This document shows, piece by piece, positions 19,245 through 32,245 of a stretch of 64,000 nt of DNA; position 1 is the first letter of the stretch, and each line of letters opens with the position of its first letter. The stretch is from the NCBI GenBank assembly GCA_963828465.1, contig CAWHEU010000022.1:4577-68576 (forward strand), written 5' to 3'. The notes beneath the pieces were generated by a model that saw only the letters and a list, made by a program, of their open reading frames with translations, did not search any database and was not told the origin of the DNA. Position numbers and translations under genes: made by a program. The DNA comes from an uncultured Acidobacteriota bacterium. Lineage in GTDB: Bacteria; Actinomycetota; Acidimicrobiia; Spongiisociales; ZC4RG35.

Positions 19245-20812
19245 ATGACCGGAAGCACATCGCTTTGGGGAACGACCTACTTCCTGGCGCTGTTCGCCGC
19301 GATACTGGCCCTTCCCACCAGCTGGTTTCTCTTCCGTCGCTACCGGCGGTCGATTCTTCGGCTGATGAACGAGCGCTCCTCTGGCGATCAGATGGCGGAG
19401 GACATTGGTCCGATCCCTGACCACCCCCGGCCCACGGCGTCACCGCACACCGACGTCATCGAGGCGGGGTTGCGACGGAACGTGATCGTGGTGGTCATCG
19501 TCGCACTCGTCTCCGCGTTCGCCTTCGCCGCGTTGTTCCTGGTCTGGAACGAAGTCGGCCTCTCGGTCTGGCGGCTCTCGACCTTCGGCATTCTCTACTC
19601 CTGGCCGGCGGTGATCGGAGTCTGGATCGTCACCGGCGGGCGGCGACGATGGGTCCTTACTTCCCTGGCCGTGTACTTCGTCTCTCTGGCTATCGCCGTG
19701 ACCGTCGCCGGCGGCTCATGGGACGTGCCGGCGCAGTTGTTCCTGTTCAGCCTGGTCCCCACCGCGGCGATCATCGGGTTCCTCTCCCGCCGCTTTCGCG
19801 GTGTGGGCGCTTTGGTGCTCGGCACGATGATGCTTGCCCTGGCCGGCTCTCAAGCCTTCGCTTTCACCGTTTTCGGTAACGAGGTCTTGATCACAGCTTG
19901 GGCCGAGATTCTCACTGCGCTCGGCGTCACCAGCGGCATGGTGGCGTGGTTGGCTCTGATTGGGGTGGGGTTCGTGTTGTCCCTCCTCCTCGGAGTCGTC
20001 GCAACCAGGCTGCTGGCTGGGTGGTACGCGCGATTTGGCTTCTCGGATCAGATGCTGCTCCTCGGCTCGACCTTCCTGGTCTTCGCCGTCGACCAATCCG
20101 GGTCGGCGAGCACGACGGAGGGAGGCCCCTTTGGAATAGGGCTGCTCATCTATGTCGCCGCCGCCGTGGTCGCCTTCGTTCTGTATCGCCTCATCCATCG
20201 CCGAGCCGGTGGACCCGTCAACTCTGCTGATGCTCAGGGTGTTCTCATCCGACCCCACACGCCAACGTCTGCTCGACCAGATCGCGTCCAAATGGCGGTA
20301 TCTCGGCCCGGTCATGATGATCGGAGGGCCTGACCTGGCCGTGAACAACGTCGAGCCGGATGAATTCCTCGCCTTCGTGAGCGGCCGGACGCGGCGACTC
20401 TTCGTCAGCGGCCCCGAAGATCTCGCCGAGAGGATTGCGGAGCCTCGAGATACGGACCGACCGGGACGCCCGCTACCGGATCGACGAGTTCTTCTGTTTC
20501 GACGACACGTGGCGTTCCACCGTGAGCGAGCTGCTCGCACATAGCGACGCCGTGGTCATGGACCTGCGTTCGTTTGGCCCCGAGAACCGGGGGTCGAGCC
20601 ACGAACTAGAGCTGCTCGCCTCACGAGGCGCATTGGGCCGGACCGTCCTTCTGGTGGACCAGAGCACCGATCGCGCCCTGCTCGACACGATCCTCGCTTC
20701 AGTGCCTGAGTCCAAGCCCCCACCGTTCTCGTGCGTCCACGACGACCAAGCCGATGAGGCGACGCTGGCCTGCCTGGCAGCAGTTGAGGACGCCGTTGCA
20801 AGTCACGGGTAG
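19245..20812 (+). CDS. polytopic membrane protein (~8 TM) with a cytoplasmic C-terminal domain of unknown function; two apparent frameshifts (~20205 and ~20460)
   Basis: Three consecutive ORFs (19245.., 20152.., 20435..) are in three different frames. Each carries protein-like sequence: TM helices, then TLLMLRVFSSDPTRQRLLDQIASKWRYLGPVMMIGGPDLA…, then RYRIDEFFCFDDTWRSTVSELLAHSDAVVMDLRSFG…. This suggests one gene broken by indels. Confidence 0.5.
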
Positions 20813-20892
20813 TCGACCATCGGTAGCCTGGATGTCCCACGAATGAAGGGATTCTGACCATCGTCGATCCCTGAGGTCTGAAGGGGGGACTA

Positions 20893-22398
20893 ATGACCGG
20901 CGCAATGTCGGCACCGAATCCGACATCGCGTCCCAGTGACGCTGTCTTCATCAGCTACACACACGTAGACAACAAGCCGTTCGGCCCCGAGAAGCAACGT
21001 TGGATATCGCTCCTCGACGAGCATCTGAGCGTTCGACTCGAGCAACTTGCACCAGAGCATCACGTGTCGGTGTGGCGGGACGACAAGCTCCAAGGCAACG
21101 ACGTGTTCTCCGAGTCGCTGAAGGAGCGACTGGGGGAGGTAGCAGTGTTGATTTCGGTGTGTTCGCCCAGGTACTTGGTCTCGGAGTGGTGTCAGAGAGA
21201 ACTCAATGAGTTCGTGCAGGCCCAGGCGAAGCGGGGGCTCGAAGTAGGGACGAAGAGTCGGGTATTCAAGGTGATGAAGACACCGGTGCCTCTAGACGAA
21301 CTCCCTCCTCCGCTCGCTCCGCTGTTGGGGTACGAGTTCTATGAGGTATTGCCGGAAGGCGACCACTTTCGAGAATTCCTTCTCAACCCGAATGAGGAGG
21401 CGCGATGGAAGTTCTACGCTCGAGCGGACGATCTCGCCCAGGACATCGCCGATCTGCTCGACGAGTTGGCCGATGAGGCCGTCCGCCCCGAACCGGTCAC
21501 CTCCAGCACCGTGTATCTAGCTGCGACCACATCGGATGTCTCGGAGGGCCGGGACGACCTCAAGCGGGAACTGCAGCGACGCGGCTTCCGGGTATTTCCC
21601 GATCGCGACCTGCCTTTCGTGGCAGACGACCTGTCAGCGGCCATCACTGGCTGGTTGTCCGAGTCGGACTTCTCGATCCATCTCCTCGGTGCCCGGTACG
21701 GCGCCAGGCCAGAGGGTGACGATCGGTCGATTCCCGACCTGCAACTGGAGCTTGCCCGAGGGTTCGCCAACCGACAGGTTCTGACTCAGCTCATCTGCAT
21801 CAACGACGGGCACGAGGTGGTTGAAGAAGAGCAGGTCGAACTCATCGAGAGAGTCGAGACGACGAACGTCGGCCGAGGAGTCGAAGTGGTGAAGGCTCCG
21901 TTCGATAGGTTCAAGGAACATGTCCTGGACACGATGTCTCGGAGCCCGCTGGCGACAAAAGTGGATACCGGAGCAGAGGGTAGGACCGTCTACCTCGCCT
22001 ACGACCGGGTAGACAGCGAGGCAGCTGAAGCGCTGCAGACCTTGATCGAGGATCGGGGGTACAACGTTTTGTCGCCACTCATGGAGGGATCCGAGTCTGA
22101 AGTGCGTGAAGTCCACGAAACATCGATGGTGCTGAGTGACGCAGTGCTGATCTACTACGGCAAATGCACTGAGCACTGGGTGCGAATGCGGCTCTTCGAT
22201 CTCATGAAAGTGCGCGGGTGGGGCAGAACTGAGCCTTACCTGGCTCAAGCCCTGTGGGTCGGTGCTCCCGACACGCCACACAAGGCGAAGGTGCACATCA
22301 CACAGACTCTGCTCCTGAACGGCATGGCCGATCCCGCGCTGACGGCACTCGAGCCATTCCTCGTACGTCTGGAAGGGCGCGACGCGAGCAACGGATGA
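20893..22398 (+). CDS. TIR-domain protein (N-terminal canonical TIR plus two further degenerate TIR-like modules)
   Basis: DAVFISYTHVDNK…WRDDKLQGNDVF…AVLISVCSPRYLVSEWCQRELNEF is a textbook bacterial TIR. Two later blocks beginning TVYLAATTSD… and RTVYLAYDRVDSEAAEALQ… repeat the fold signature. Stop overlaps the next start (ATGA at 22395). Confidence 0.8.
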   Translation: MTGAMSAPNPTSRPSDAVFISYTHVDNKPFGPEKQRWISLLDEHLSVRLEQLAPEHHVSVWRDDKLQGNDVFSESLKERLGEVAVLISVCSPRYLVSEWCQRELNEFVQAQAKRGLEVGTKSRVFKVMKTPVPLDELPPPLAPLLGYEFYEVLPEGDHFREFLLNPNEEARWKFYARADDLAQDIADLLDELADEAVRPEPVTSSTVYLAATTSDVSEGRDDLKRELQRRGFRVFPDRDLPFVADDLSAAITGWLSESDFSIHLLGARYGARPEGDDRSIPDLQLELARGFANRQVLTQLICINDGHEVVEEEQVELIERVETTNVGRGVEVVKAPFDRFKEHVLDTMSRSPLATKVDTGAEGRTVYLAYDRVDSEAAEALQTLIEDRGYNVLSPLMEGSESEVREVHETSMVLSDAVLIYYGKCTEHWVRMRLFDLMKVRGWGRTEPYLAQALWVGAPDTPHKAKVHITQTLLLNGMADPALTALEPFLVRLEGRDASNG

Positions 22399-25300
22399 CG
22401 GCTACGTCCCCACTATTCAATCCCTTCCCCGGTCTTCGGCCGTTTCGCGAGGACGAGACACCTCTCTTCTTCGGCCGAGATGCCCAGATCGACGAGCTCC
22501 TCGCCGAACTGGGTAGGTCCCGATTCGTAGCAGTCATGGGAGCCTCCGGAAGCGGTAAGTCGTCCCTGGTCACCGCAGGGCTTCTGCCCGCGCTCCAGGG
22601 TGGACTCTCACCGCGATTGGGGGCCAATTGGCGCATCGCCAGCTTGCGCCCCGGGGGCGACCCGGTGCGCAACCTGGCCAGGGCCCTCGTCGAACCCGGC
22701 GTCCTCGATCGAGACGGCTCCGATGAGACCAGAGGCGTCGATCAAACGGAGGCGTTGCTCAGACGAAGCGGTCTTGGTCTCGCCGATCTGGCAAGACGTG
22801 ACGAGAGCCTGAGAGACGGCCGCCTACTGGTCGTTGTCGACCAGTTCGAGGAGTTGTTCCGATTTCAGGACGCTGGGGGCAGGGCACACGACGGCGCGGA
22901 CAATCCGGCATTCGTCCGGCTCCTGATCGAGGCTGTCGCCGACGAATCCAACGTGAGTGTGATCTTGACCATGCGATCCGACTACTTGGGGGATTGTTCC
23001 CAGTTCGACCAGCTGCCCGAGACGATCAACCAAGGGCTCTATCTCGTTCCCCGGCTTACACGCACGCAGCTCCGCGGGGCGATCACCGGTCCAGTCGCCG
23101 TCGGGGGCGGAACGATTGCCCCTCGACTTGTGCAACGGCTCCTGAACGACGCCGGCGCGGATCCCGACCAGCTGCCCGTGTTGCAGCACGCCCTGATGAG
23201 GATCTGGGACCTGTGGACTGGGGACGTGACTGCTCCTGGGCCAATCGACCTCGAGCATTACGAGGCTGCCGGCGGACTCGAGGAGGCGCTCGCCCGGCAT
23301 GCCGACGAGGCATATGACGATCTGACCGACGATCGGAGCCGGCGGATCGCGGAGCTTGCCTTCAAGCGCCTCACTGAGCTCGGAAACGATGGTCGCGAGG
23401 GCCGTCACCCGGCCACGTTGGCCGAGATCGCCTCTGTTGCAGATGCCACGGTCGAAGAAACGCGCGAGGTGATCCGTCACTTCGAGCAGCCGGGAAGATC
23501 CTTCGTCATGGTGTCTGATGACGGAGTCGTCGACATCTCCCACGAAAGCCTCATTCGCCAATGGCCGAGACTCCGTGACTGGGTTGGCGAGGAGGCGGCC
23601 TCCCGAGACACGTATCACCGGCTGGCCGAGTCCGCCGGCCGATGGCGTCGAGGTGAGGCTGCTCTCATGCGAGATCCGGATCTGCAGCTAGCTGTGAACT
23701 GGTGGACGGACAACCAGCCGAGCGGTGCCTGGGCCGAGCGGTACGGCTCGACATTCCAGGACGCAGCCGACTACCTGGATCGGAGCCGCAAAGCCGAGAG
23801 AAGCCGGCGGCTTCTGACGTGGTCCGGTGTCGCAGGGCTGGGCGTCCTGGCAGTCCTGTTCGCGGTGTTGGCTGTATGGGCGATAACGGCAGAACAGGAC
23901 GCGAAGTATCAGGAACGTCTTGCTGTCGGAAGGCAACTCTCCGCGGTCTCGACCGAGCACGGACCGGAGCGTCGGACAACCAGCATCCTCACCGCATTGG
24001 AGGCTCTTCGGACTACCGAGACCGACGGACTGCGTCTCCCGGAGGCCGAGGAGGCACTGCGTGCTGCGATGCACGACCCGCTCGGCATCCGACTCCCCGG
24101 CCAGCCGGGTCAGCTCGGCCATGACGAGGATGTGACGACACTGGGTTTCAGTCCCGACGGGAGATGGTTGGCGACGGGTAGCGCTGACGACACGGTGTTG
24201 CTATGGGATCTGGAGGACACGGAAGGGGACCCGCGTCCGTTGCCCGGTCATGCCGACGACGTGGTGGCGTTGGCGTTCAGCCCCGACGCCCGTTGGTTGG
24301 CCACCGGCAGTCTCGACGGCACCGCCATGTTGTGGGACCTGGAAGATGCGGAAGCCAAGCCCCGGATCCTGGACGGCCATACAGATGAGGTGACATCACT
24401 TGCCTTCAGCCCCGATGGCAGCTGGCTTGCCACCGGGAGCGTCGACGAAACCATCCAGCTCCGTGAATTGGACAACCCGGATCTCGTGGCCCGTGTCCTC
24501 CAGAGCGAGGCGGGATTCATCCTCTGCCTGGCCTTCAGCCCTGACGAGAGGTGGCTGGCGGCCGGCACTGGCACCGGCGTCGGGTATCTGTGGGACATGG
24601 GGAATCCCGGCGGCGACCCCGAGACGCTCAGCGGTCACAACGATGCTGTGGTCGCTGTCGCTTTCAGCCGTGACGGTGCTTCGCTGGCCACCGGGAGCAG
24701 GGATGCGACGATCCGGCTATGGGACCCCGACGTTCCGACCAATCCGTTTGCCAGGCTGGAACAAGGCGACGCGGTGCTCGGCCTGGTGCTCAGCTCCGAC
24801 GGGAGATGGCTAGCCACCGGCGGTGAGGACAACGCCGCCCGTGTTTGGGACCTCCAGCGGTTGAGAGGATCCCCTGACCCGTCACTAGTCCTCGTGCACT
24901 CCGGCCCCGTGGAACGGGTCTCCTTCAGTGCTGACAACCGCTGGCTGGCCACCGGTGGTCCTGGTGACCCGGCTCGGCTCTTCCAGGTCAACGACGCGTC
25001 TCTGCCGCCCGTGGTGCTCGCCGGCCCGGTCACGGCCCTCGGGTTCAGCACCGACGACCGATGGCTGGCGATCGGATCGGATCAGGGCTCGGCTCGCCTT
25101 TGGGGGACGGACCAACTCCCAACACAACCGGCAGTGCTCGATCACGACGACAAGGTCTCAGCGATCGAATTTGGCCCGGACGGTCGTGTGGCCACGGGGA
25201 CCACAGCCAATGTCACGCGTCTGTGGAGTCTCGACGACCCTTCGGCTGAGCCCGAAGTGCTAGCGCAAACGGATTTCGGGTTCGATATGGCACAGGTGGA

Positions 25301-26141
25301 AGCGATCGCGTTCAGACCCGACGGACGTATGTTGGCCACCGGCAGCGGTGACATGCGGGTCCGGTTGTGGACGCTGGATCCTTCAGGGTCCCAACTCGTA
25401 TCCGAGGAGCCTCTCGAGGCTGGAATCAATGATCTGGCCTTTAGTGCGGACGGGGACCGGCTTGCTATCGCGGTGAAGGAAGAGGATGTCTTGCTGTGGG
25501 ATGTGGCGGAGCGGTCGTTCGAGCGTCTCGAGGGTCACAGTGCTGAGGTGCGGAGCGTGGCCTTCAGCCCGAACGGACGTTTGCTGGCCACTGGAGACCT
25601 GGACGGGGAGATCCGGGTCTGGAATCTCGAAGATCTGGAGGTTCCTCCGGAGTCTCTGCGCGCCCATGCCGAGCGGGTGACATCGTTGGCCTTCGACGGA
25701 GAGGGACGTCAGCTCGCGTCCGGGAGCTGGGATCAGACCGTCCAGATCTGGGAGGTCGACACGCGGAGCTACATCACGTTGAACACAGATGGTCGGGTCG
25801 ACAATGTAGCCCTTCGACCCGATGGGAAGTTGATTGCAGTGGCAGCCGATCAACCTCATTTATGGGATCTGACCGCCCCCGACCAGAACGACCCGATCGC
25901 CAATCCTGTCATTCTGCGGGACCACACCAGCGTCGTGAACGCGGTTGCATTCAGCGCGGACGGGAGATGGCTCGGTACCGGGAGTGACGATCACTCCGTT
26001 CGTCTCTGGCTCCAACTGGAGGAATTGGCAGAGCTCGGCTGTGCCAGCGCGGGACGGAACCTGAGTCACGACGAGGTGCAGGAAATCAATCCCGGCGCCA
26101 AGAGCGTTAGCACGTGCGAAGAATGGCCCGAGGGGTCTTAG
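22395..26141 (+). CDS. nSTAND-type P-loop NTPase (NACHT-like) with a central TM helix and ~15 C-terminal WD40 repeats
   Basis: PFPGLRPFREDETPLFFGRDAQIDELL…RFVAVMGASGSGKSSLVTAGLLP carries a Walker A motif. Walker B is LLVVVDQFEE. The hydrophobic segment LLTWSGVAGLGVLAVLFAVLAVWAI is a TM helix. Then ~15 repeats of the type GHxDxVxxLAFSPDGRWLATGSxDxTxxLWDL. Confidence 0.85.
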   Translation: MTATSPLFNPFPGLRPFREDETPLFFGRDAQIDELLAELGRSRFVAVMGASGSGKSSLVTAGLLPALQGGLSPRLGANWRIASLRPGGDPVRNLARALVEPGVLDRDGSDETRGVDQTEALLRRSGLGLADLARRDESLRDGRLLVVVDQFEELFRFQDAGGRAHDGADNPAFVRLLIEAVADESNVSVILTMRSDYLGDCSQFDQLPETINQGLYLVPRLTRTQLRGAITGPVAVGGGTIAPRLVQRLLNDAGADPDQLPVLQHALMRIWDLWTGDVTAPGPIDLEHYEAAGGLEEALARHADEAYDDLTDDRSRRIAELAFKRLTELGNDGREGRHPATLAEIASVADATVEETREVIRHFEQPGRSFVMVSDDGVVDISHESLIRQWPRLRDWVGEEAASRDTYHRLAESAGRWRRGEAALMRDPDLQLAVNWWTDNQPSGAWAERYGSTFQDAADYLDRSRKAERSRRLLTWSGVAGLGVLAVLFAVLAVWAITAEQDAKYQERLAVGRQLSAVSTEHGPERRTTSILTALEALRTTETDGLRLPEAEEALRAAMHDPLGIRLPGQPGQLGHDEDVTTLGFSPDGRWLATGSADDTVLLWDLEDTEGDPRPLPGHADDVVALAFSPDARWLATGSLDGTAMLWDLEDAEAKPRILDGHTDEVTSLAFSPDGSWLATGSVDETIQLRELDNPDLVARVLQSEAGFILCLAFSPDERWLAAGTGTGVGYLWDMGNPGGDPETLSGHNDAVVAVAFSRDGASLATGSRDATIRLWDPDVPTNPFARLEQGDAVLGLVLSSDGRWLATGGEDNAARVWDLQRLRGSPDPSLVLVHSGPVERVSFSADNRWLATGGPGDPARLFQVNDASLPPVVLAGPVTALGFSTDDRWLAIGSDQGSARLWGTDQLPTQPAVLDHDDKVSAIEFGPDGRVATGTTANVTRLWSLDDPSAEPEVLAQTDFGFDMAQVEAIAFRPDGRMLATGSGDMRVRLWTLDPSGSQLVSEEPLEAGINDLAFSADGDRLAIAVKEEDVLLWDVAERSFERLEGHSAEVRSVAFSPNGRLLATGDLDGEIRVWNLEDLEVPPESLRAHAERVTSLAFDGEGRQLASGSWDQTVQIWEVDTRSYITLNTDGRVDNVALRPDGKLIAVAADQPHLWDLTAPDQNDPIANPVILRDHTSVVNAVAFSADGRWLGTGSDDHSVRLWLQLEELAELGCASAGRNLSHDEVQEINPGAKSVSTCEEWPEGS
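24100..26010 (+). repeat. ~15 tandem WD40 repeat units (coding repeats) forming two beta-propellers
   Basis: The recurrent peptide AFSPDGRWLATGS…RLWDL is visible ~15 times, including the degenerate units at ~25142 and ~25860. Confidence 0.8.
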
Positions 26142-26151
26142 GCGCGGTCGC

Positions 26152-27213
26152 TCAGGACGGCGGGGGGGAGATCAGGGTCACTACTGCCAAGAACTCGCCG
26201 TCGTTGTTGGTGACGCCGATGTCGTTGATCCCGAGGTAGAGACGACCGTCGGATTCGACGGTCGTCTGGAACTCACTGCCCACTTCGAACGGGACCCCAT
26301 TCTCTCCGATTTTTCCGATGAGCCCGGCATGATTGGCATCCTCGACCCCGGGCAGATTGGATTCGTGTCCCGGAAGGTTGGGGTCACCATCAGGAGTGAG
26401 CAGCGGGCCGTTCTCGGAGTGCTTTATCCGGCCGCCGGCTTCGATGTCGAGTGTGACTCCCGTGACGACATCGATACCGGAGTCCGTCCACAACACCGTG
26501 CCGGGCACCCGGACAGTCTGAGTTTTCGATGGCTCGGCATCGCATGCCTGAAATCCACCGACAAACTCTCCAAGCGGCGGAGCATCCGGGTCCAGCCGCG
26601 CCTCCTCGAACCACGCATTGAATTCTTGGGTGGGAACGCATATCGCGGGCCCCGGGGCCTGGCCTTTGGTCAGAAACGCGGCCTCGGTATAGGTTCCCTC
26701 CCTTGCCTCGTAGGTCTGGGAAAGACCCTCGGAGGTGAGCTCGATCGACCCCTTCTTGACCACGACACACGTGTTCTCAGTCGGCGGCTGACAAGCCGTG
26801 AACACCGTGGCGGGCTCCAATGCCGTGATGGTCGAGCTCGACGTTTCCAGTGTCAGACGGGTGTCGCTCACTTCGTCGTCGGTGAAGGTGACATGACCGC
26901 CGCCGAGGTACGCCCTCGCTTCCGCCGGTTCCCAGCTCTCGAGTTGGATGGCCGCCTGCCTGGACAACTCGAATCTGCCCAGGTCTCGGATCGTGAGGAG
27001 CCCACTGGCGCCGGGCCCCAACGTGATCTGGTTTCCCAGATCGATCGATTCACCGTCCCCGGTGCCGATCTCGGTTTCGCTCACCGAAATAGGGCCCTTA
27101 TAGACAACCAGATCTGCCTGCATGGGCGGTGTGACTTCATCTCCTCCGCAGGCAGCTAAGGCGAGGGTGATGAGCGTGATAGCCAGTCCCCCCCGAGACT
27201 TCCGTCGCAACAT
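26152..27213 (-). CDS. secreted lipoprotein with a beta-rich C-terminal domain, function unknown
   Basis: MLRRKSRGGLAITLITLALAACGGDE gives a lipobox LAAC. The Gly/Thr/Asp-rich C-terminus looks like a beta-sandwich. The ORF extends to 27258. Confidence 0.65.
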   Translation of the reverse strand: MLRRKSRGGLAITLITLALAACGGDEVTPPMQADLVVYKGPISVSETEIGTGDGESIDLGNQITLGPGASGLLTIRDLGRFELSRQAAIQLESWEPAEARAYLGGGHVTFTDDEVSDTRLTLETSSSTITALEPATVFTACQPPTENTCVVVKKGSIELTSEGLSQTYEAREGTYTEAAFLTKGQAPGPAICVPTQEFNAWFEEARLDPDAPPLGEFVGGFQACDAEPSKTQTVRVPGTVLWTDSGIDVVTGVTLDIEAGGRIKHSENGPLLTPDGDPNLPGHESNLPGVEDANHAGLIGKIGENGVPFEVGSEFQTTVESDGRLYLGINDIGVTNNDGEFLAVVTLISPPPS

Positions 27214-28353: not shown

Positions 28354-29919
28354 ATGTCGTTCTTCGACTCGCCACTTGGTGAGCAGCTCCGCTCCAGCCT
28401 CGATGCGGGGAAACCAGAGGACATCGCCGCCGCGGTAGGGGTGGTCAAGGGGAAGGTGTGGTCGGGGACAGTGCAGCCCGATCAGGTCGACGAGGTCCTC
28501 GCAGAACTGCAGCGACAACGACAGGTTCAGCACGTCATCGACATCGCCGATGCGGCCACCGCGGTCGGCTCGATCACGACGTCGGGCCGTCGCCGCTACT
28601 GCCAGATGCTGATCGAGTCGGGAGCCCTCCATGCCGGCGAGCTCGCCTGCGCAGAGCTTCTCGATCTGGCCGAGGATGCGAAGGAGCGGGGGGAGGCACT
28701 GGGGCTGCTCGGGCGGATCCGCAAGCAGCGTTACGTGACCAGCCGCCGGCCCGAGGATTTGATCGGCGCAATTGCCGCCTATCAGTTCGCATACGCGGGA
28801 GGCGGCGACCCGCTCTGGCATGGCATCAATCTCCTCGCACTCACCACCCGGGCCCATCGTGACGGAATCCTCGTTCCCCAACCGGTCGACACGGACGCTC
28901 TGACACGCACGCTCCTCGACGTAGTCAGGCAGACGGCACCCGAGTTGCAAGAGATCTGGGAGCGCACCACCGAGGTCGAGGCCCTGGTCGCCCTGGGCGA
29001 CAAGGCGTCGGTGGACGAAGCGGTGTCGGTGGCACAGAAACTCGCCAGCAGCAAGAGTGTCCGGCCGTTTGAGCTGGAGAGCCTTCGCCGTCAGCTGGCC
29101 GACATCTGGGAACTCGAGCCGCATCACCCGGTGCTGGTGGCCATCGCAGCGCAGAAGCTCCAACTCGGGGCCAGGGCCCATGTCGAGCTGCCCGATTCCG
29201 CGGGCCAGTTGGAGAAGATCTTCGGGACGGCCCTGCCTGTGGGGTACAAGCACCTGATGAGGGGTCTCGAGTGCGCAGAATCGGTGGGAAAGATCACCGA
29301 CGCATCCGAAGAGCCGTGGGGCACGGGATTCCTCCTACGCGGGAATCTGATCCATCCCGACTTCGGCGATGGACTGGTGCTGGCTACCAACGCCCACGTC
29401 TGTAGTCCAGAGCCCGGAGTGGGCAAGCTGCTGCCGAGCGAGGCGAAGGCTGTCTTCGACGTGACCAAGTCGGTCGATGGGGAGCAACTCGTCCTCACCG
29501 GCTTCGAGTGCCTGTGGAGCTCACCACCCTCGGTATGCGATGTCACCATCCTTCGCTTCACCGGACCCGAGCCGGCGCTCAAAGGCCAGCTCGACGTCGC
29601 CGCGTTGCCCCAGCCAGTGACGGAGGGCGCATATGTCTATGTCATCGGCCATCCGGCGGGGGGTGGGATCAAGTTTTCGATCAGGGGCAACGACCTTCTC
29701 GCCTATGACGCCGACATGTTCAAAGTCCACTACACCGCCCCCACCGAAGGGGGCAGCTCCGGGAGCCCGGTCTTCAACCAGGCATGGCAGCTGATGGCTG
29801 TTCATCACGCTGGAGATTCGAAGATGCACCGACTGGACGACCCTTCCGCTACGTATCAGGCCAACGAGGGGATCACGATCAAGGGGATCAGAGAGGAGTA
29901 CTCCAAGAATGGAAAATGA
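28354..29919 (+). CDS. N-terminal alpha-helical (TPR-like) domain fused to a C-terminal trypsin-like serine protease
   Basis: Catalytic triad context: LATNAHV (His), YDAD (Asp), GGSSGSPVF (Ser) in the C-terminal ~220 aa. The N-terminal ~300 aa is helical. No signal peptide. Confidence 0.8.
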   Translation: MSFFDSPLGEQLRSSLDAGKPEDIAAAVGVVKGKVWSGTVQPDQVDEVLAELQRQRQVQHVIDIADAATAVGSITTSGRRRYCQMLIESGALHAGELACAELLDLAEDAKERGEALGLLGRIRKQRYVTSRRPEDLIGAIAAYQFAYAGGGDPLWHGINLLALTTRAHRDGILVPQPVDTDALTRTLLDVVRQTAPELQEIWERTTEVEALVALGDKASVDEAVSVAQKLASSKSVRPFELESLRRQLADIWELEPHHPVLVAIAAQKLQLGARAHVELPDSAGQLEKIFGTALPVGYKHLMRGLECAESVGKITDASEEPWGTGFLLRGNLIHPDFGDGLVLATNAHVCSPEPGVGKLLPSEAKAVFDVTKSVDGEQLVLTGFECLWSSPPSVCDVTILRFTGPEPALKGQLDVAALPQPVTEGAYVYVIGHPAGGGIKFSIRGNDLLAYDADMFKVHYTAPTEGGSSGSPVFNQAWQLMAVHHAGDSKMHRLDDPSATYQANEGITIKGIREEYSKNGK

Positions 29920-30721
29920 CGCAATCCCTCCGGAGTTCCTGGAGCCCGAGGGCGACGCCGAGCGCCAGGATCCCGACCTCGTCTTCGAGACGACGTCAGC
30001 GACACTACGGGGGCTGTGGAATGACTGGATGTGCAAACGAGGTGACGGGACTTTCGTCGACGTCGAATTCTTCGGCCGCCGGATCGGCGGAGTGCCGACC
30101 CCGGCGGTCGACGCCTATCGGGCGCTCGAGGTAGCCCTGCGCTCCGCCGGTTACAAGCCAGATTCGCGGTGGGCGTACAACTGCAGGCTCATCGAGGGGA
30201 CGGACAAGCCCTCGCTGCACTCGGCCGGGATCGCAGTTGACATCGACCCGGACGAGAACCCGTTCTCGAAGGGTGACCCCTTCGCCGGGAAGATGGGTCC
30301 CGACCATGTCGCCGCGGCGCTGGCCATTCGCAACAGCGCCGGCGCCCGGGTGTGGTCCTGGGGCGGGCATTGGAACAAGCCCGATCGGATGCACTTCCAG
30401 CTCGACAGGGGGCCTGCGGCGGTGGATGTGGATTGGCGAACCGTCCCCGGTGGTGGCCCCGAAAGCGCCAGTTCGGGGTCAATGGACGTGAAGGAGGAAG
30501 AGATGGTTCTGTCCAAGAGCATGAAAGGCCCAGCAGTGGAGCGGTTCCAGCAGTGCCTGCTCGATTGGAATGCCAAGGCGCTGCCGAAGGACGGAGCCGA
30601 TGGTGTTTTTGGGAGCGAGACCGTCGAATGGGTGGGGCGGTTCCAGGAGGCCCTTGGTCTGGAGAAGACCGGAGTGATCGACGGGGTGACCGCGGCCTTG
30701 CTGGTCGCCCACGGGAAGTAA
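29909..30721 (+). CDS. M15 family (VanY/D-Ala-D-Ala carboxypeptidase-like) zinc peptidase with a C-terminal peptidoglycan-binding (PG_binding_1) domain; no signal peptide
   Basis: SLHSAGIAVDID (H…D zinc ligands) and GGHWNKPDRMHFQ (His). C-terminal GPAVERFQQCLLDWN…DGVFGSETVEWVGRFQEALGL matches the PG-binding fold. 11-nt overlap with the upstream stop. Confidence 0.8.
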   Translation: MENDAIPPEFLEPEGDAERQDPDLVFETTSATLRGLWNDWMCKRGDGTFVDVEFFGRRIGGVPTPAVDAYRALEVALRSAGYKPDSRWAYNCRLIEGTDKPSLHSAGIAVDIDPDENPFSKGDPFAGKMGPDHVAAALAIRNSAGARVWSWGGHWNKPDRMHFQLDRGPAAVDVDWRTVPGGGPESASSGSMDVKEEEMVLSKSMKGPAVERFQQCLLDWNAKALPKDGADGVFGSETVEWVGRFQEALGLEKTGVIDGVTAALLVAHGK

Positions 30722-30727
30722 CAAGCC

Positions 30728-32245
30728 ATCAAGGTCTTCCTGAGCTACCGGCGGGACGACACGGCGGGGCGCGCCGGAAGGCTCCACGACGCCCTGGCCT
30801 CGAGTTTCGGCACCCGCAACGTGTTCATGGACGTTTCCGCCATCGCGGTCGGCACCGACTTCGTCGACCAGGTGGAACGAGCGATCTCGACGAGCGACGC
30901 CTCGCTGGTGGTGATGGGGCCGAATTGGCTCGGGGCCACTGACCCCGAAGGCCGTCGGCGGCTCGACGATCCCCAGGACCACGTGAGGTCTGAGGTGCGC
31001 TCCGCGCTGGCCTCACCCAACCCGGTGGTTCCGGTGCTGGTCGGGGATGCATCGTTGCCGACCGAGGACCAACTGCCTGACGATCTGAAAGCCCTGGCGC
31101 GCCGACAAGCCGTGGAATTGCGGGACGAGACATGGTCTGAAGATGTCGAGATGCTGGTCCGGCGTCTCGAAGGCAAGGAGACGGTCCGGGAACCCCGCCG
31201 CTGGATTCTGCTGGCCATTGGCTTGATACTCCTGGGTGGCGTCGGCGCCGCTATCTGGATGGCTCAGGCAGGCGGCGAGGATGAGTTGACCCAATGCTCG
31301 GTGCCGGACGAGACATGGACCACGATCGACGTGGAACCCGGCGCCACGGACGTCGAACAATTGGAGCGGGATCGGGCACTCCGCTACACGGTGGTGAGTA
31401 CGGATTTCAGGGATGAACCCGGGGACGAGTGGTACGTCGTGCTCCATGTGAGGCTGGAGAACGAGTCCACGGACGTGGCGGGAAACGACGACCACACCGG
31501 GTACGGACCGTCGATCTTCGACGCCCTGCACGTCGATGAGATCTCGGTCGGGGGCCCTTACTGCTTTGGCGAGAACAGTGGTGACAGCGATCTCGCCCCG
31601 GGGGAGGCGGCCAACGCACGGGTTGGATTCCTCTCCGTACCTGGACCCCACCGAGGCAAGTCTGATGCTCGAGACCGATGGGCCCCTCTTTATCGAGATC
31701 ACCCCGGGCGCGTGATGCCGACGGTCCTGTTCTCGGGCCACATGGTCGATGCACCAGACCGGCCGTCTCCACGCTTCCCACCCGAGCGTGTTCCCCTGGT
31801 GCGGCGGGCGATCGCGGAAGCCGTCTGGCTCATCGATGACACCGACGCGGAGGCGATCTCGGGACTCGCCTGCGGGGGCGATCTCCTCTTCGCCGAGGAA
31901 TGGCTGAAGACCGGGCGGCCCTTGCACGCCTATCTGCCACGTGAAGAGGCGGATTTTCTCGACGAGTCGGTTCGTTTTGCCGGCTCGGAGTGGGTGGACT
32001 CGTTCCGTGAAGTGACCGCTGATCCGAACCTGGTCCTGATCGGTCCGGACCAAGAGATGCTTGGTTTGAACGAACCGCACACCGCGAACAACCTCCGCAT
32101 GCTCGAAGCTGCGTTGCTGCGGCCCGGCGCCCTCAACGGTCTGTTCCTTTGGGACGGCAAGGGAGGCGACGGTCCGGGAGGCACCGAGCACCTGGCCTCT
32201 GAGGTGGTCGAGCAGGGCGGGAGTGTCACCGTTCTCCGTCCGTAG
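30728..32245 (+). CDS. TIR domain – TM helix – C-terminal Rossmann-like (LOG/SLOG-like) domain protein; non-canonical start (ATC where ATG is expected)
   Basis: (I/M)KVFLSYRRDDTAGRAGRLHDALASSFGTRNVFMDVSAIAVGTDF…ASLVVMGPNWL is a canonical TIR. TM helix RRWILLAIGLILLGGVGAAIWMA. The C-terminus has ISGLACGGDLLFAEEWL … LFLWDGKGGDGPGGTEHL, reminiscent of LOG/SLOG Rossmann domains. The reading frame is open only from the TAA of the upstream gene (30719-30721). The first in-frame ATG (30830) lies inside the TIR domain. Confidence 0.65.
   Translation: MKVFLSYRRDDTAGRAGRLHDALASSFGTRNVFMDVSAIAVGTDFVDQVERAISTSDASLVVMGPNWLGATDPEGRRRLDDPQDHVRSEVRSALASPNPVVPVLVGDASLPTEDQLPDDLKALARRQAVELRDETWSEDVEMLVRRLEGKETVREPRRWILLAIGLILLGGVGAAIWMAQAGGEDELTQCSVPDETWTTIDVEPGATDVEQLERDRALRYTVVSTDFRDEPGDEWYVVLHVRLENESTDVAGNDDHTGYGPSIFDALHVDEISVGGPYCFGENSGDSDLAPGEAANARVGFLSVPGPHRGKSDARDRWAPLYRDHPGRVMPTVLFSGHMVDAPDRPSPRFPPERVPLVRRAIAEAVWLIDDTDAEAISGLACGGDLLFAEEWLKTGRPLHAYLPREEADFLDESVRFAGSEWVDSFREVTADPNLVLIGPDQEMLGLNEPHTANNLRMLEAALLRPGALNGLFLWDGKGGDGPGGTEHLASEVVEQGGSVTVLRP

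Follow-up and report, generated by a model that had tools for sequence, protein, structure and literature searches.

A bacterial TIR protein carrying two further domains of predicted flavodoxin/TIR-like fold is encoded next to an nSTAND1 NTPase in many phyla

We analysed a 64,000-nucleotide stretch of bacterial DNA (the window) and found in it a gene for a 501-residue protein that consists of a TIR domain, a NIR-like (DUF4062) domain with glutamine at the catalytic position and a probably TIR/NDT-like third domain, in this order. The gene (20893..22398, + strand) overlaps the start of a gene for an nSTAND1 NTPase with WD40 repeats, and an nSTAND1 gene accompanies nearly all relatives whose loci we inspected. 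Our preferred reading, which we hold with moderate confidence, is that the two genes form an NLR-like conflict system, probably with an anti-phage or abortive-infection role, in which the 501-residue protein is the effector, and that its second and third domains act as an adaptor or regulatory part.

The gene is supported by the open reading frame listing, by full-length homologues and by their alignment, and the open reading frame contains the peptide strings quoted in the original prediction. The protein has three alpha/beta modules at residues 14-195, 203-350 and 362-495 (blocks 1, 2 and 3), so that the boundaries proposed earlier for the last two modules (~180-330 and ~350-500) were about right. 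At least 534 relatives were present in a large protein collection, nearly all of them about 500 residues long and covering 95-100% of the query, and an alignment of 57 sequences contained invariant residues in each of the three blocks. Because the layout is kept at full length in so many homologues, with invariant residues in every block, it is not a product of chance. Among 192 relatives, the mean pairwise identity was 45% for block 1, 40% for block 2 and 42% for block 3, and columns with at least 90% conservation made up 13-14% across the three blocks. The blocks are about equally conserved, and purifying selection acts on all of them. A search of the whole window identified no further copies of blocks 1-3; the other TIR_2 gene of the window, at 30821-32245, is not related to the cassette. 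A promoter and terminator scan of positions 20300-26500 found no promoter-like sites and one terminator-like site, which is fewer than expected by chance; the latter site precedes the TIR gene, at 20551.

Block 1 (residues ~14-195; 20932..21477, + strand), delimited with Pfam TIR_2 and a family HMM of the block, is a standard TIR domain by sequence. It matched TIR_2, a member of the Pfam clan STIR, over residues 18-112 (E=4.1e-15, 56.8 bits with a cut-off of 28), just exceeded the threshold of the TIR model PF01582 (22.0 versus 21.3) and matched the TIR-like NCBIfam model FxsC_Nterm with E=7e-14, under the cut-off of that model. The predicted catalytic residue, E103 (codon 21199..21201, + strand), lies in the motif SEWCQRELNEF and is glutamate in 191 of 197 relatives (97%). 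Alignment placed this motif opposite 'SSSWCLDELLEI' in ADR2, a plant TIR whose WCLDEL motif aligns with E103, and paired the block 1 motif SPRYLVSEWCQRELNEF with 'SKNYASSSWCLDELLEI' from a plant TNL TIR. We take the E103 position to be that of the glutamate on helix alphaC that is catalytic in TIR NADases (WxxxE or SxWCxxE motif). The canonical N-terminal TIR domain described in the original prediction is therefore confirmed by the TIR_2 match and the retained glutamate, and block 1 most likely cleaves NAD+, judging from this residue. When block 1 was compared with the PDB by phmmer, the highest-ranking entries were 'Bagel' designer propellers, which lacked a single significant stretch and were discarded as repeat artefacts; TIR structures ranked below them.

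Block 2 (residues ~203-350; 21499..21942, + strand) belongs to the DUF4062/NIR family in degenerate form. The Pfam model PF13271 (DUF4062) scored 26.7 bits when the block was scanned alone (cut-off 24.7) and a borderline 24.5 bits at residues 207-285 of the full-length protein, against the same gathering score of 24.7. PF13271 is among the precomputed annotations of many relatives, and databases automatically annotate many members with TIR_2 plus DUF4062. Profile-profile comparison with hhalign aligned block 2 with a KpSwz-like DUF4062 profile (Prob 95, P=4.1e-8; reversed control 0.4). The predicted structure is a five-stranded alpha/beta fold of the TIR/NDT type, and its top fold matches, namely TIR, CMP hydrolase and Rcl, are the same as those reported for the NIR domain of PsAvs2. 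Block 2 and the DUF4062/NIR proteins have scaffold motifs in common in the profile alignment, including GxRYG, S...A and the aspartate after strand A.

DUF4062, renamed NIR, has been shown by experiment to be a TIR-like NADase of phage defence that is also present in human TEP1, with the catalytic glutamate at E97 in KpSwz, E108 in PsAvs2 and E87 in Eva01; function is lost in KpSwz E97A, PsAvs2 E108Q, Vulcan E98Q and Vesta E103Q (2026 preprints 10.64898/2026.05.01.722283 and 10.64898/2026.09.04.749371). PDB entry 10wc is the KpSwz E97A mutant and reads TEKAF where KpSwz homologues have TEKEF, which identifies the second glutamate of TEKEF as the catalytic residue of KpSwz. In our profile alignment this glutamate paired with Q284 of block 2 (codon 21742..21744, + strand), and S279, the acidic residue at 286 and A288 matched alongside; the alignment has about 18% identity, and four flanking motif positions support the placement. 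Among 239 relatives, position 284 was glutamine in 221 (92%), glutamate in 12 (5%) and another residue in 6. Q284 is the same glutamate-to-glutamine change that experimenters use to kill NIR enzymes. Two further DUF4062 motifs were absent from block 2 in the profile alignment: the Q/W/E motif of helix alphaB, where EEQWEF stood opposite DDLSAA, and the N-terminal aromatic 'STF' motif, where the phenylalanine stood opposite threonine. Both motifs are as defined in the Evangelion paper, and we equated the phenylalanine with Eva01 F11. Given the glutamine at the catalytic position and the loss of both motifs, block 2 is a true, if degenerate, NIR domain and is probably catalytically dead.

Block 3 (residues ~362-495; 21976..22377, + strand) is a flavodoxin-like, probably TIR/NDT-like domain that lacks the catalytic glutamate. 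Its AF2 model (pLDDT 90.7) is a five-stranded beta/alpha sandwich of flavodoxin-like form, and the four best Foldseek matches in the PDB were NDT, the SARM1 TIR, TIR-1 and TIR-STING, all marginal and none reaching E<=1e-3. No Pfam family scored above threshold for the copy in the window or for 37 members of the family. Below threshold, TIR_2 appeared in 12 of the 37 members (best E=7.3e-5), the next family appeared in 3, and the window protein itself gave a weak TIR_2 match with E=0.17. A PDB profile search returned only de novo designs, a cytochrome trimer and the like with E of ~0.01 and was uninformative. The clearest sequence relationship of block 3 is with block 2: hhalign gave P=6.4e-4 over 98 in-register columns (reversed controls 0.19-0.64), and in 113 of 120 relatives a block 3 HMM matched block 2 at its first beta-alpha-beta unit. 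Block 3 did not match the KpSwz-like DUF4062 profile (P=0.64). Hence, the likeness of block 3 to TIR/NDT domains is confined to marginal matches in fold and sub-threshold matches in sequence, and block 3 is probably a diverged relative of block 2. In the alignment, L434 stands opposite Q284, and R431 is the fifth residue of alphaC. A polar set of positions, D374, H408, W429, R445 and K464, is near-invariant and may form a pocket for a ligand or a surface for docking.

Profile-profile alignment revealed no in-register similarity of block 1 to either of the other two blocks; even the best match (P=0.004; controls 0.2-0.6) was shifted out of register. A triplicated TIR was rejected on this basis, and the architecture is best read as TIR plus NIR-like plus NIR-like. 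The original prediction had proposed a canonical TIR followed by two degenerate TIR-like modules. Its assignment of the fold withstood the refuting test that it had set, as the high-confidence predicted structures of blocks 2 and 3 are flavodoxin/TIR-like, and the identity of block 2 can now be refined to DUF4062/NIR with a glutamine (P=4e-8). The covalent tandem triple TIR that it inferred was not borne out. It had also called the arrangement unusual, which was an overstatement for a family with at least 567 genome loci, many members of which are already annotated with TIR_2 and DUF4062. The suggested pre-assembled or regulatory scaffold would be compatible with the split NLR-like system proposed below.

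The most informative fact about the cassette, which the original prediction had overlooked, is its near-obligate nSTAND1 partner. In the window, the downstream gene (22395..26141, + strand) encodes a protein of 1248 residues with strong Pfam matches to nSTAND1 (E=2.8e-102) and WD40 (E=1.5e-114). The NTPase spans residues ~10-420 with an intact Walker A motif (GASGSGKS) and is followed by ~12-14 WD40 repeats, matched in 12 stretches. Direct reading of the sequence shows an ATGA overlap at 22395..22398 (+ strand), in which the nSTAND1 start codon ATG occupies 22395-22397 and the TGA stop codon of the TIR gene 22396-22398. The nSTAND1 model begins at residue 10 and the TIR domain is on the separate gene, leaving no effector fused N-terminally to the NTPase. 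Pfam searches identified no recognisable EAD/Death-like adaptor in either protein of the window. The nSTAND1 clade of STAND NTPases has been defined as belonging to prokaryotic conflict systems (PMC8195603). We fetched 80 of the at least 567 loci, from many phyla; 78 of these have an adjacent nSTAND1 gene in the same orientation, which lies immediately downstream in 75 and upstream in 3. The two loci without nSTAND1 have only 11 and 302 nt of downstream flank.

These loci, collected in a scan of one genome per species, span Acidimicrobiales, Thermoleophilia, Acidobacteriota, Bacteroidota, Verrucomicrobiota, cyanobacteria, Pseudomonadota, spirochaetes and others; the closest relatives are from Acidimicrobiales, with 55% identity. 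A profile search with block 3 returned 2456 cluster representatives. Among the best 145 of these, the B1-B2-B3 cassette was constant and carried variable N-terminal additions, such as a protein kinase, CHAT, extra TIRs or EAD1, and variants with a doubled block 2 (B1-B2-B2-B3) also exist in the family. In the kinase, CHAT and EAD1 versions, the nSTAND1 gene was still downstream. One relative is paired with an nSTAND1 protein that has a SpoIIE (PP2C phosphatase) tail in place of WD40, and one multi-TIR relative lies within a locus with EAD9, iSTAND, MoxR and VWA genes. In the window, the immediate upstream neighbours are ordinary transport and metabolic genes, and the defence-island context is therefore only partial. 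Genes for a TPR-S-trypsin protein, the second TIR_2 protein and a peptidoglycan hydrolase are also nearby, and TIR, TPR-S-trypsin and peptidoglycan hydrolase genes are found near the cassette of a related locus as well. PADLOC matched neither protein to a known system, giving weak matches to TIR motifs only, and NCBIfam has no named model for the system or the family.

We propose that the nSTAND1-WD40 protein, translationally coupled to the effector gene, would serve as both sensor and switch. The WD40 propellers would recognise a trigger, upon which the STAND NTPase would oligomerise, and the 501-residue protein would deliver the output in trans, its TIR domain cleaving NAD+ for depletion or to generate a signal. 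TIR activity generally requires assembly of TIR domains with one another. Blocks 2 and 3, as putative pseudo-enzymes of TIR-like fold, may dock the effector on the active nSTAND1 oligomer, control the self-assembly of the TIR domain, or both. The three blocks occur as a unit and with nSTAND1 irrespective of any upstream fusion, which makes blocks 2 and 3 most likely the adaptor or regulatory part. A more specific version, which we put forward only tentatively, is that the pair represents a new type of adaptor or sensor, made of dead NADase domains, that couples a TIR acting in trans to the nSTAND1 oligomer. In this version, the 'E-to-Q trapped' NIR and its diverged twin might bind NAD+ or a nucleotide made by the TIR domain; alternatively, the pair might template the head-to-tail assembly of TIR domains. 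Either way, it would take the role that Death-fold or EAD adaptors have in other NLR systems.

Other readings concern the nature of blocks 2 and 3. Block 3 could be no relative of TIR and NIR domains but another kind of flavodoxin-fold module (receiver-like or B12-binding-like, for instance), leaving the protein with two TIR-like domains instead of three. The Foldseek matches that all miss E<=1e-3, the Pfam families that all stay below threshold and the failure of hhalign to connect block 3 with either the KpSwz-like DUF4062 profile or block 1 are in line with this view. However, the four best structural matches are NDT and three TIR domains, and TIR_2 is by far the commonest sub-threshold Pfam match (12 of 37), in register from strand A. 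Block 2 and block 3 also align with P=6e-4, well apart from the reversed controls (0.2-0.6), 113 of 120 relatives show a match of the block 3 HMM to the beginning of block 2, the block 3 sequence contains neither the acidic pocket of receivers nor a P-loop, and the B1-B2-B2-B3 variants illustrate that tandem duplication of modules does occur in the family. We consider an unrelated origin of block 3 unlikely. It is also conceivable that blocks 2, 3 or both are active enzymes that use other residues, in which case the protein would be a multi-enzyme nucleotide processor: the TIR domain would make an ADP-ribose-type product and an NDT/NIR-like domain would modify or degrade this or another nucleotide. 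True N-glycosidases (MilB, Rcl/DNPH1, NDT and BcmB) are among the top fold matches of both blocks, the conservation of the two equals that of the TIR domain, and both retain highly conserved polar residues, E274, S279 and E/D286 in block 2 and D374, E401, H408, E427 and D/E436 in block 3. The acidic residues in this set (E274 and E286; E401, E427 and D436), together with the 5% of relatives that have glutamate at position 284, leave room for residual or different catalysis. Yet the proven catalytic glutamate is replaced in both blocks, by glutamine in block 2 (92%) and by a hydrophobic residue in block 3, three NIR proteins lose their function as E-to-Q mutants, and block 2 aligns without the Q/W/E and 'STF' aromatic motifs. 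Enzymatic activity of these blocks is, in our judgement, improbable.

A different question is whether the gene pair serves immunity at all. It could instead be a housekeeping or developmental signalling device, with an NLR-like switch acting on NAD-linked signalling in environmental bacteria. The lack of PADLOC matches to known defence systems and the metabolic and transport genes upstream in the window would suit such a role, as would the SpoIIE (PP2C) tail on one nSTAND1 protein and the kinase fusions elsewhere, which are typical signalling parts. On the other hand, the family is distributed patchily across phyla, and the CHAT, EAD1 and extra-TIR fusions and the one iSTAND/MoxR/VWA context are hallmarks of conflict systems (PMC8195603, PMC7159879). 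The TIR, TPR-S-trypsin and peptidoglycan hydrolase genes near the cassette, both in the window and at a related locus, point in the same direction, and phage defence is the function of those bacterial TIR and NIR proteins that the cited papers tested. A non-immune role is improbable in our view, and the split, NLR-like conflict system with a TIR effector in trans remains our preferred interpretation.

TIR domains and the recently recognised NIR domains are NAD+-cleaving executioners in the immunity of bacteria, plants and animals, human TEP1 among them. If the dead domains are adaptors, ligand sensors or assembly templates, NADase folds would have been recycled into regulatory parts, and the proposed system would be an example of an NLR that controls an effector on a separate chain. 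Should the adaptor or sensor version be correct, the cassette would mark a split-NLR immune system that is widespread and as yet unnamed, and it would be the first case of a NIR fold serving as a pseudo-enzyme. The system, which is found abundantly in soil and aquatic phyla, consists of only two genes, for which clear mutants can be specified (E103Q, Q284E and deletion of blocks 2-3), and is therefore directly testable.

Overall, the system is widespread and cleanly defined, and for specialists in bacterial immunity it is conceptually unsurprising. Its parts, TIR, NIR/DUF4062, STAND NTPase and WD40, are known. The literature searched on tandem TIRs in bacteria, nSTAND1 and DUF4062 did not describe the architecture, and absent from this literature are the fixed cassette of TIR, dead NIR and NIR-like domains, the natural glutamine at the catalytic site and the near-obligate pairing with nSTAND1 in trans. 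Block 1 shares the TIR_2 signature and the SxWCxxE motif with canonical TIR NADases, such as SARM1, plant TNL TIRs and bacterial proteins of the TIR_2/ThsB type. Tandem TIRs exist in mollusc Tolls (PMC4929906), whereas the extra modules of the protein described here, which we take to be of the NIR type and which lack the catalytic residue, are not duplicated TIRs.

Block 2 belongs, according to Pfam, profile-profile comparison and fold, to the same family as the DUF4062/NIR NADases of Swarozyc (KpSwz, PDB 10wc), PsAvs2, Vulcan, Vesta, Evangelion and human TEP1. In these proteins NIR is the N-terminal effector, whereas block 2 is internal, between the TIR and the third domain, and has glutamine instead of the catalytic glutamate in 92% of the relatives. 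The DUF4062/NIR preprints make no mention of a tandem of TIR and DUF4062. EAD and Death-like adaptor systems recruit effectors in trans to an NTPase core (Kaur, Burroughs, Iyer, Aravind; eLife 2020, 2021, work that includes nSTAND1 systems and defined this clade), as we propose here, and some relatives of the cassette carry EAD1 or adjoin EAD9, iSTAND, MoxR and VWA genes. An adaptor formed by blocks 2 and 3 would consist of two TIR-like pseudo-enzymes, a kind that is not described in the parts of those papers drawn on here. With Avs and other NLR-like STAND proteins and with Apaf-1, TEP1 and NWD1, the gene pair shares the logic of a STAND NTPase, a C-terminal repeat sensor and a NAD-targeting, TIR-type effector. 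It differs from them in that the NTPase is of the nSTAND1 clade, not NACHT or Avs1-5, and in the two extra pseudo-enzyme domains of the effector. TEP1 and NWD1 have the order DUF4062-NACHT-WD40 in one chain (2026 DUF4062/NIR preprint), a striking parallel to the NIR-like domains and the nSTAND1-WD40 protein of the window. Whereas Apaf-1, TEP1 and NWD1 join effector, NTPase and WD40 in a single chain, the system described here has its effector on a separate, translationally coupled polypeptide.

The nSTAND1 domain of the partner encoded directly downstream of the TIR gene (22395-26141) is better conserved across phyla than the three-block TIR cassette itself, with 46-72% identity to the window copy versus 31-56% for the cassette. 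In one Acidobacteriota relative (locus L005, 9515-11677), the partner ends in SpoIIE, a PP2C phosphatase, in place of the WD40 repeats, showing that the partner's sensor or output end can be swapped.

The cassette is also found in several variant forms among its relatives. Block 2, the DUF4062/NIR-like module, is duplicated (B1-B2-B2-B3) in P0257 and P0331 (667-670 aa) and in P0269, indicating that tandem duplication of this module is ongoing in the family. In other relatives the entire cassette is preceded by varied N-terminal domains, namely a Ser/Thr kinase (P0288, P0263, and P0310), a CHAT protease (P0245), an EAD1 adaptor (P0376), or additional TIRs (P0324). Within the loci covering these fusion forms (L006-L009), nSTAND1 still follows the kinase, CHAT, and EAD1 forms, while the multi-TIR form has EAD9-DUF4062, EAD9-iSTAND, MoxR-like AAA, and VWA genes as neighbors instead.

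Directly 5' of the TIR gene, the region 19245-20812 (+) holds a multi-pass membrane ORF of 362 aa with an apparent continuation in two other frames (20152-20544 and 20435-20812). These downstream pieces had no match in Pfam; the ORF may belong to a gene broken by a frameshift or to a pseudogene, or an error in sequencing may have split it. Shortly 3' of the TIR/nSTAND1 pair are three more genes of conflict type (28354-32245, +), encoding a TPR-S and Trypsin_2 protein (28354-29919, +), a Peptidase_M15_4 and PG_binding_1 protein (29909-30721, +), and a second TIR_2 protein of 474 aa (30821-32245, +), which is unrelated to the cassette and has ∼360 residues without assignment. A comparable set is present close to the cassette in the related locus L001 (CHAP with PG_binding_1, a TIR_2 protein of 442 aa, Peptidase_C11, and TIR_2-WD40).

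At the species level the window is closest to MAGs of Acidimicrobiales, pointing to an actinobacterial origin at 64% GC. The top NCBIfam match of block 1, over residues 19-143 (20947-21321), has E=7e-14 and scores below the model's cut-off. It is to FxsC of the FxSxx-COOH system, in the TIR-like domain at the N terminus of that protein, and may point to the TIR subfamily of block 1.
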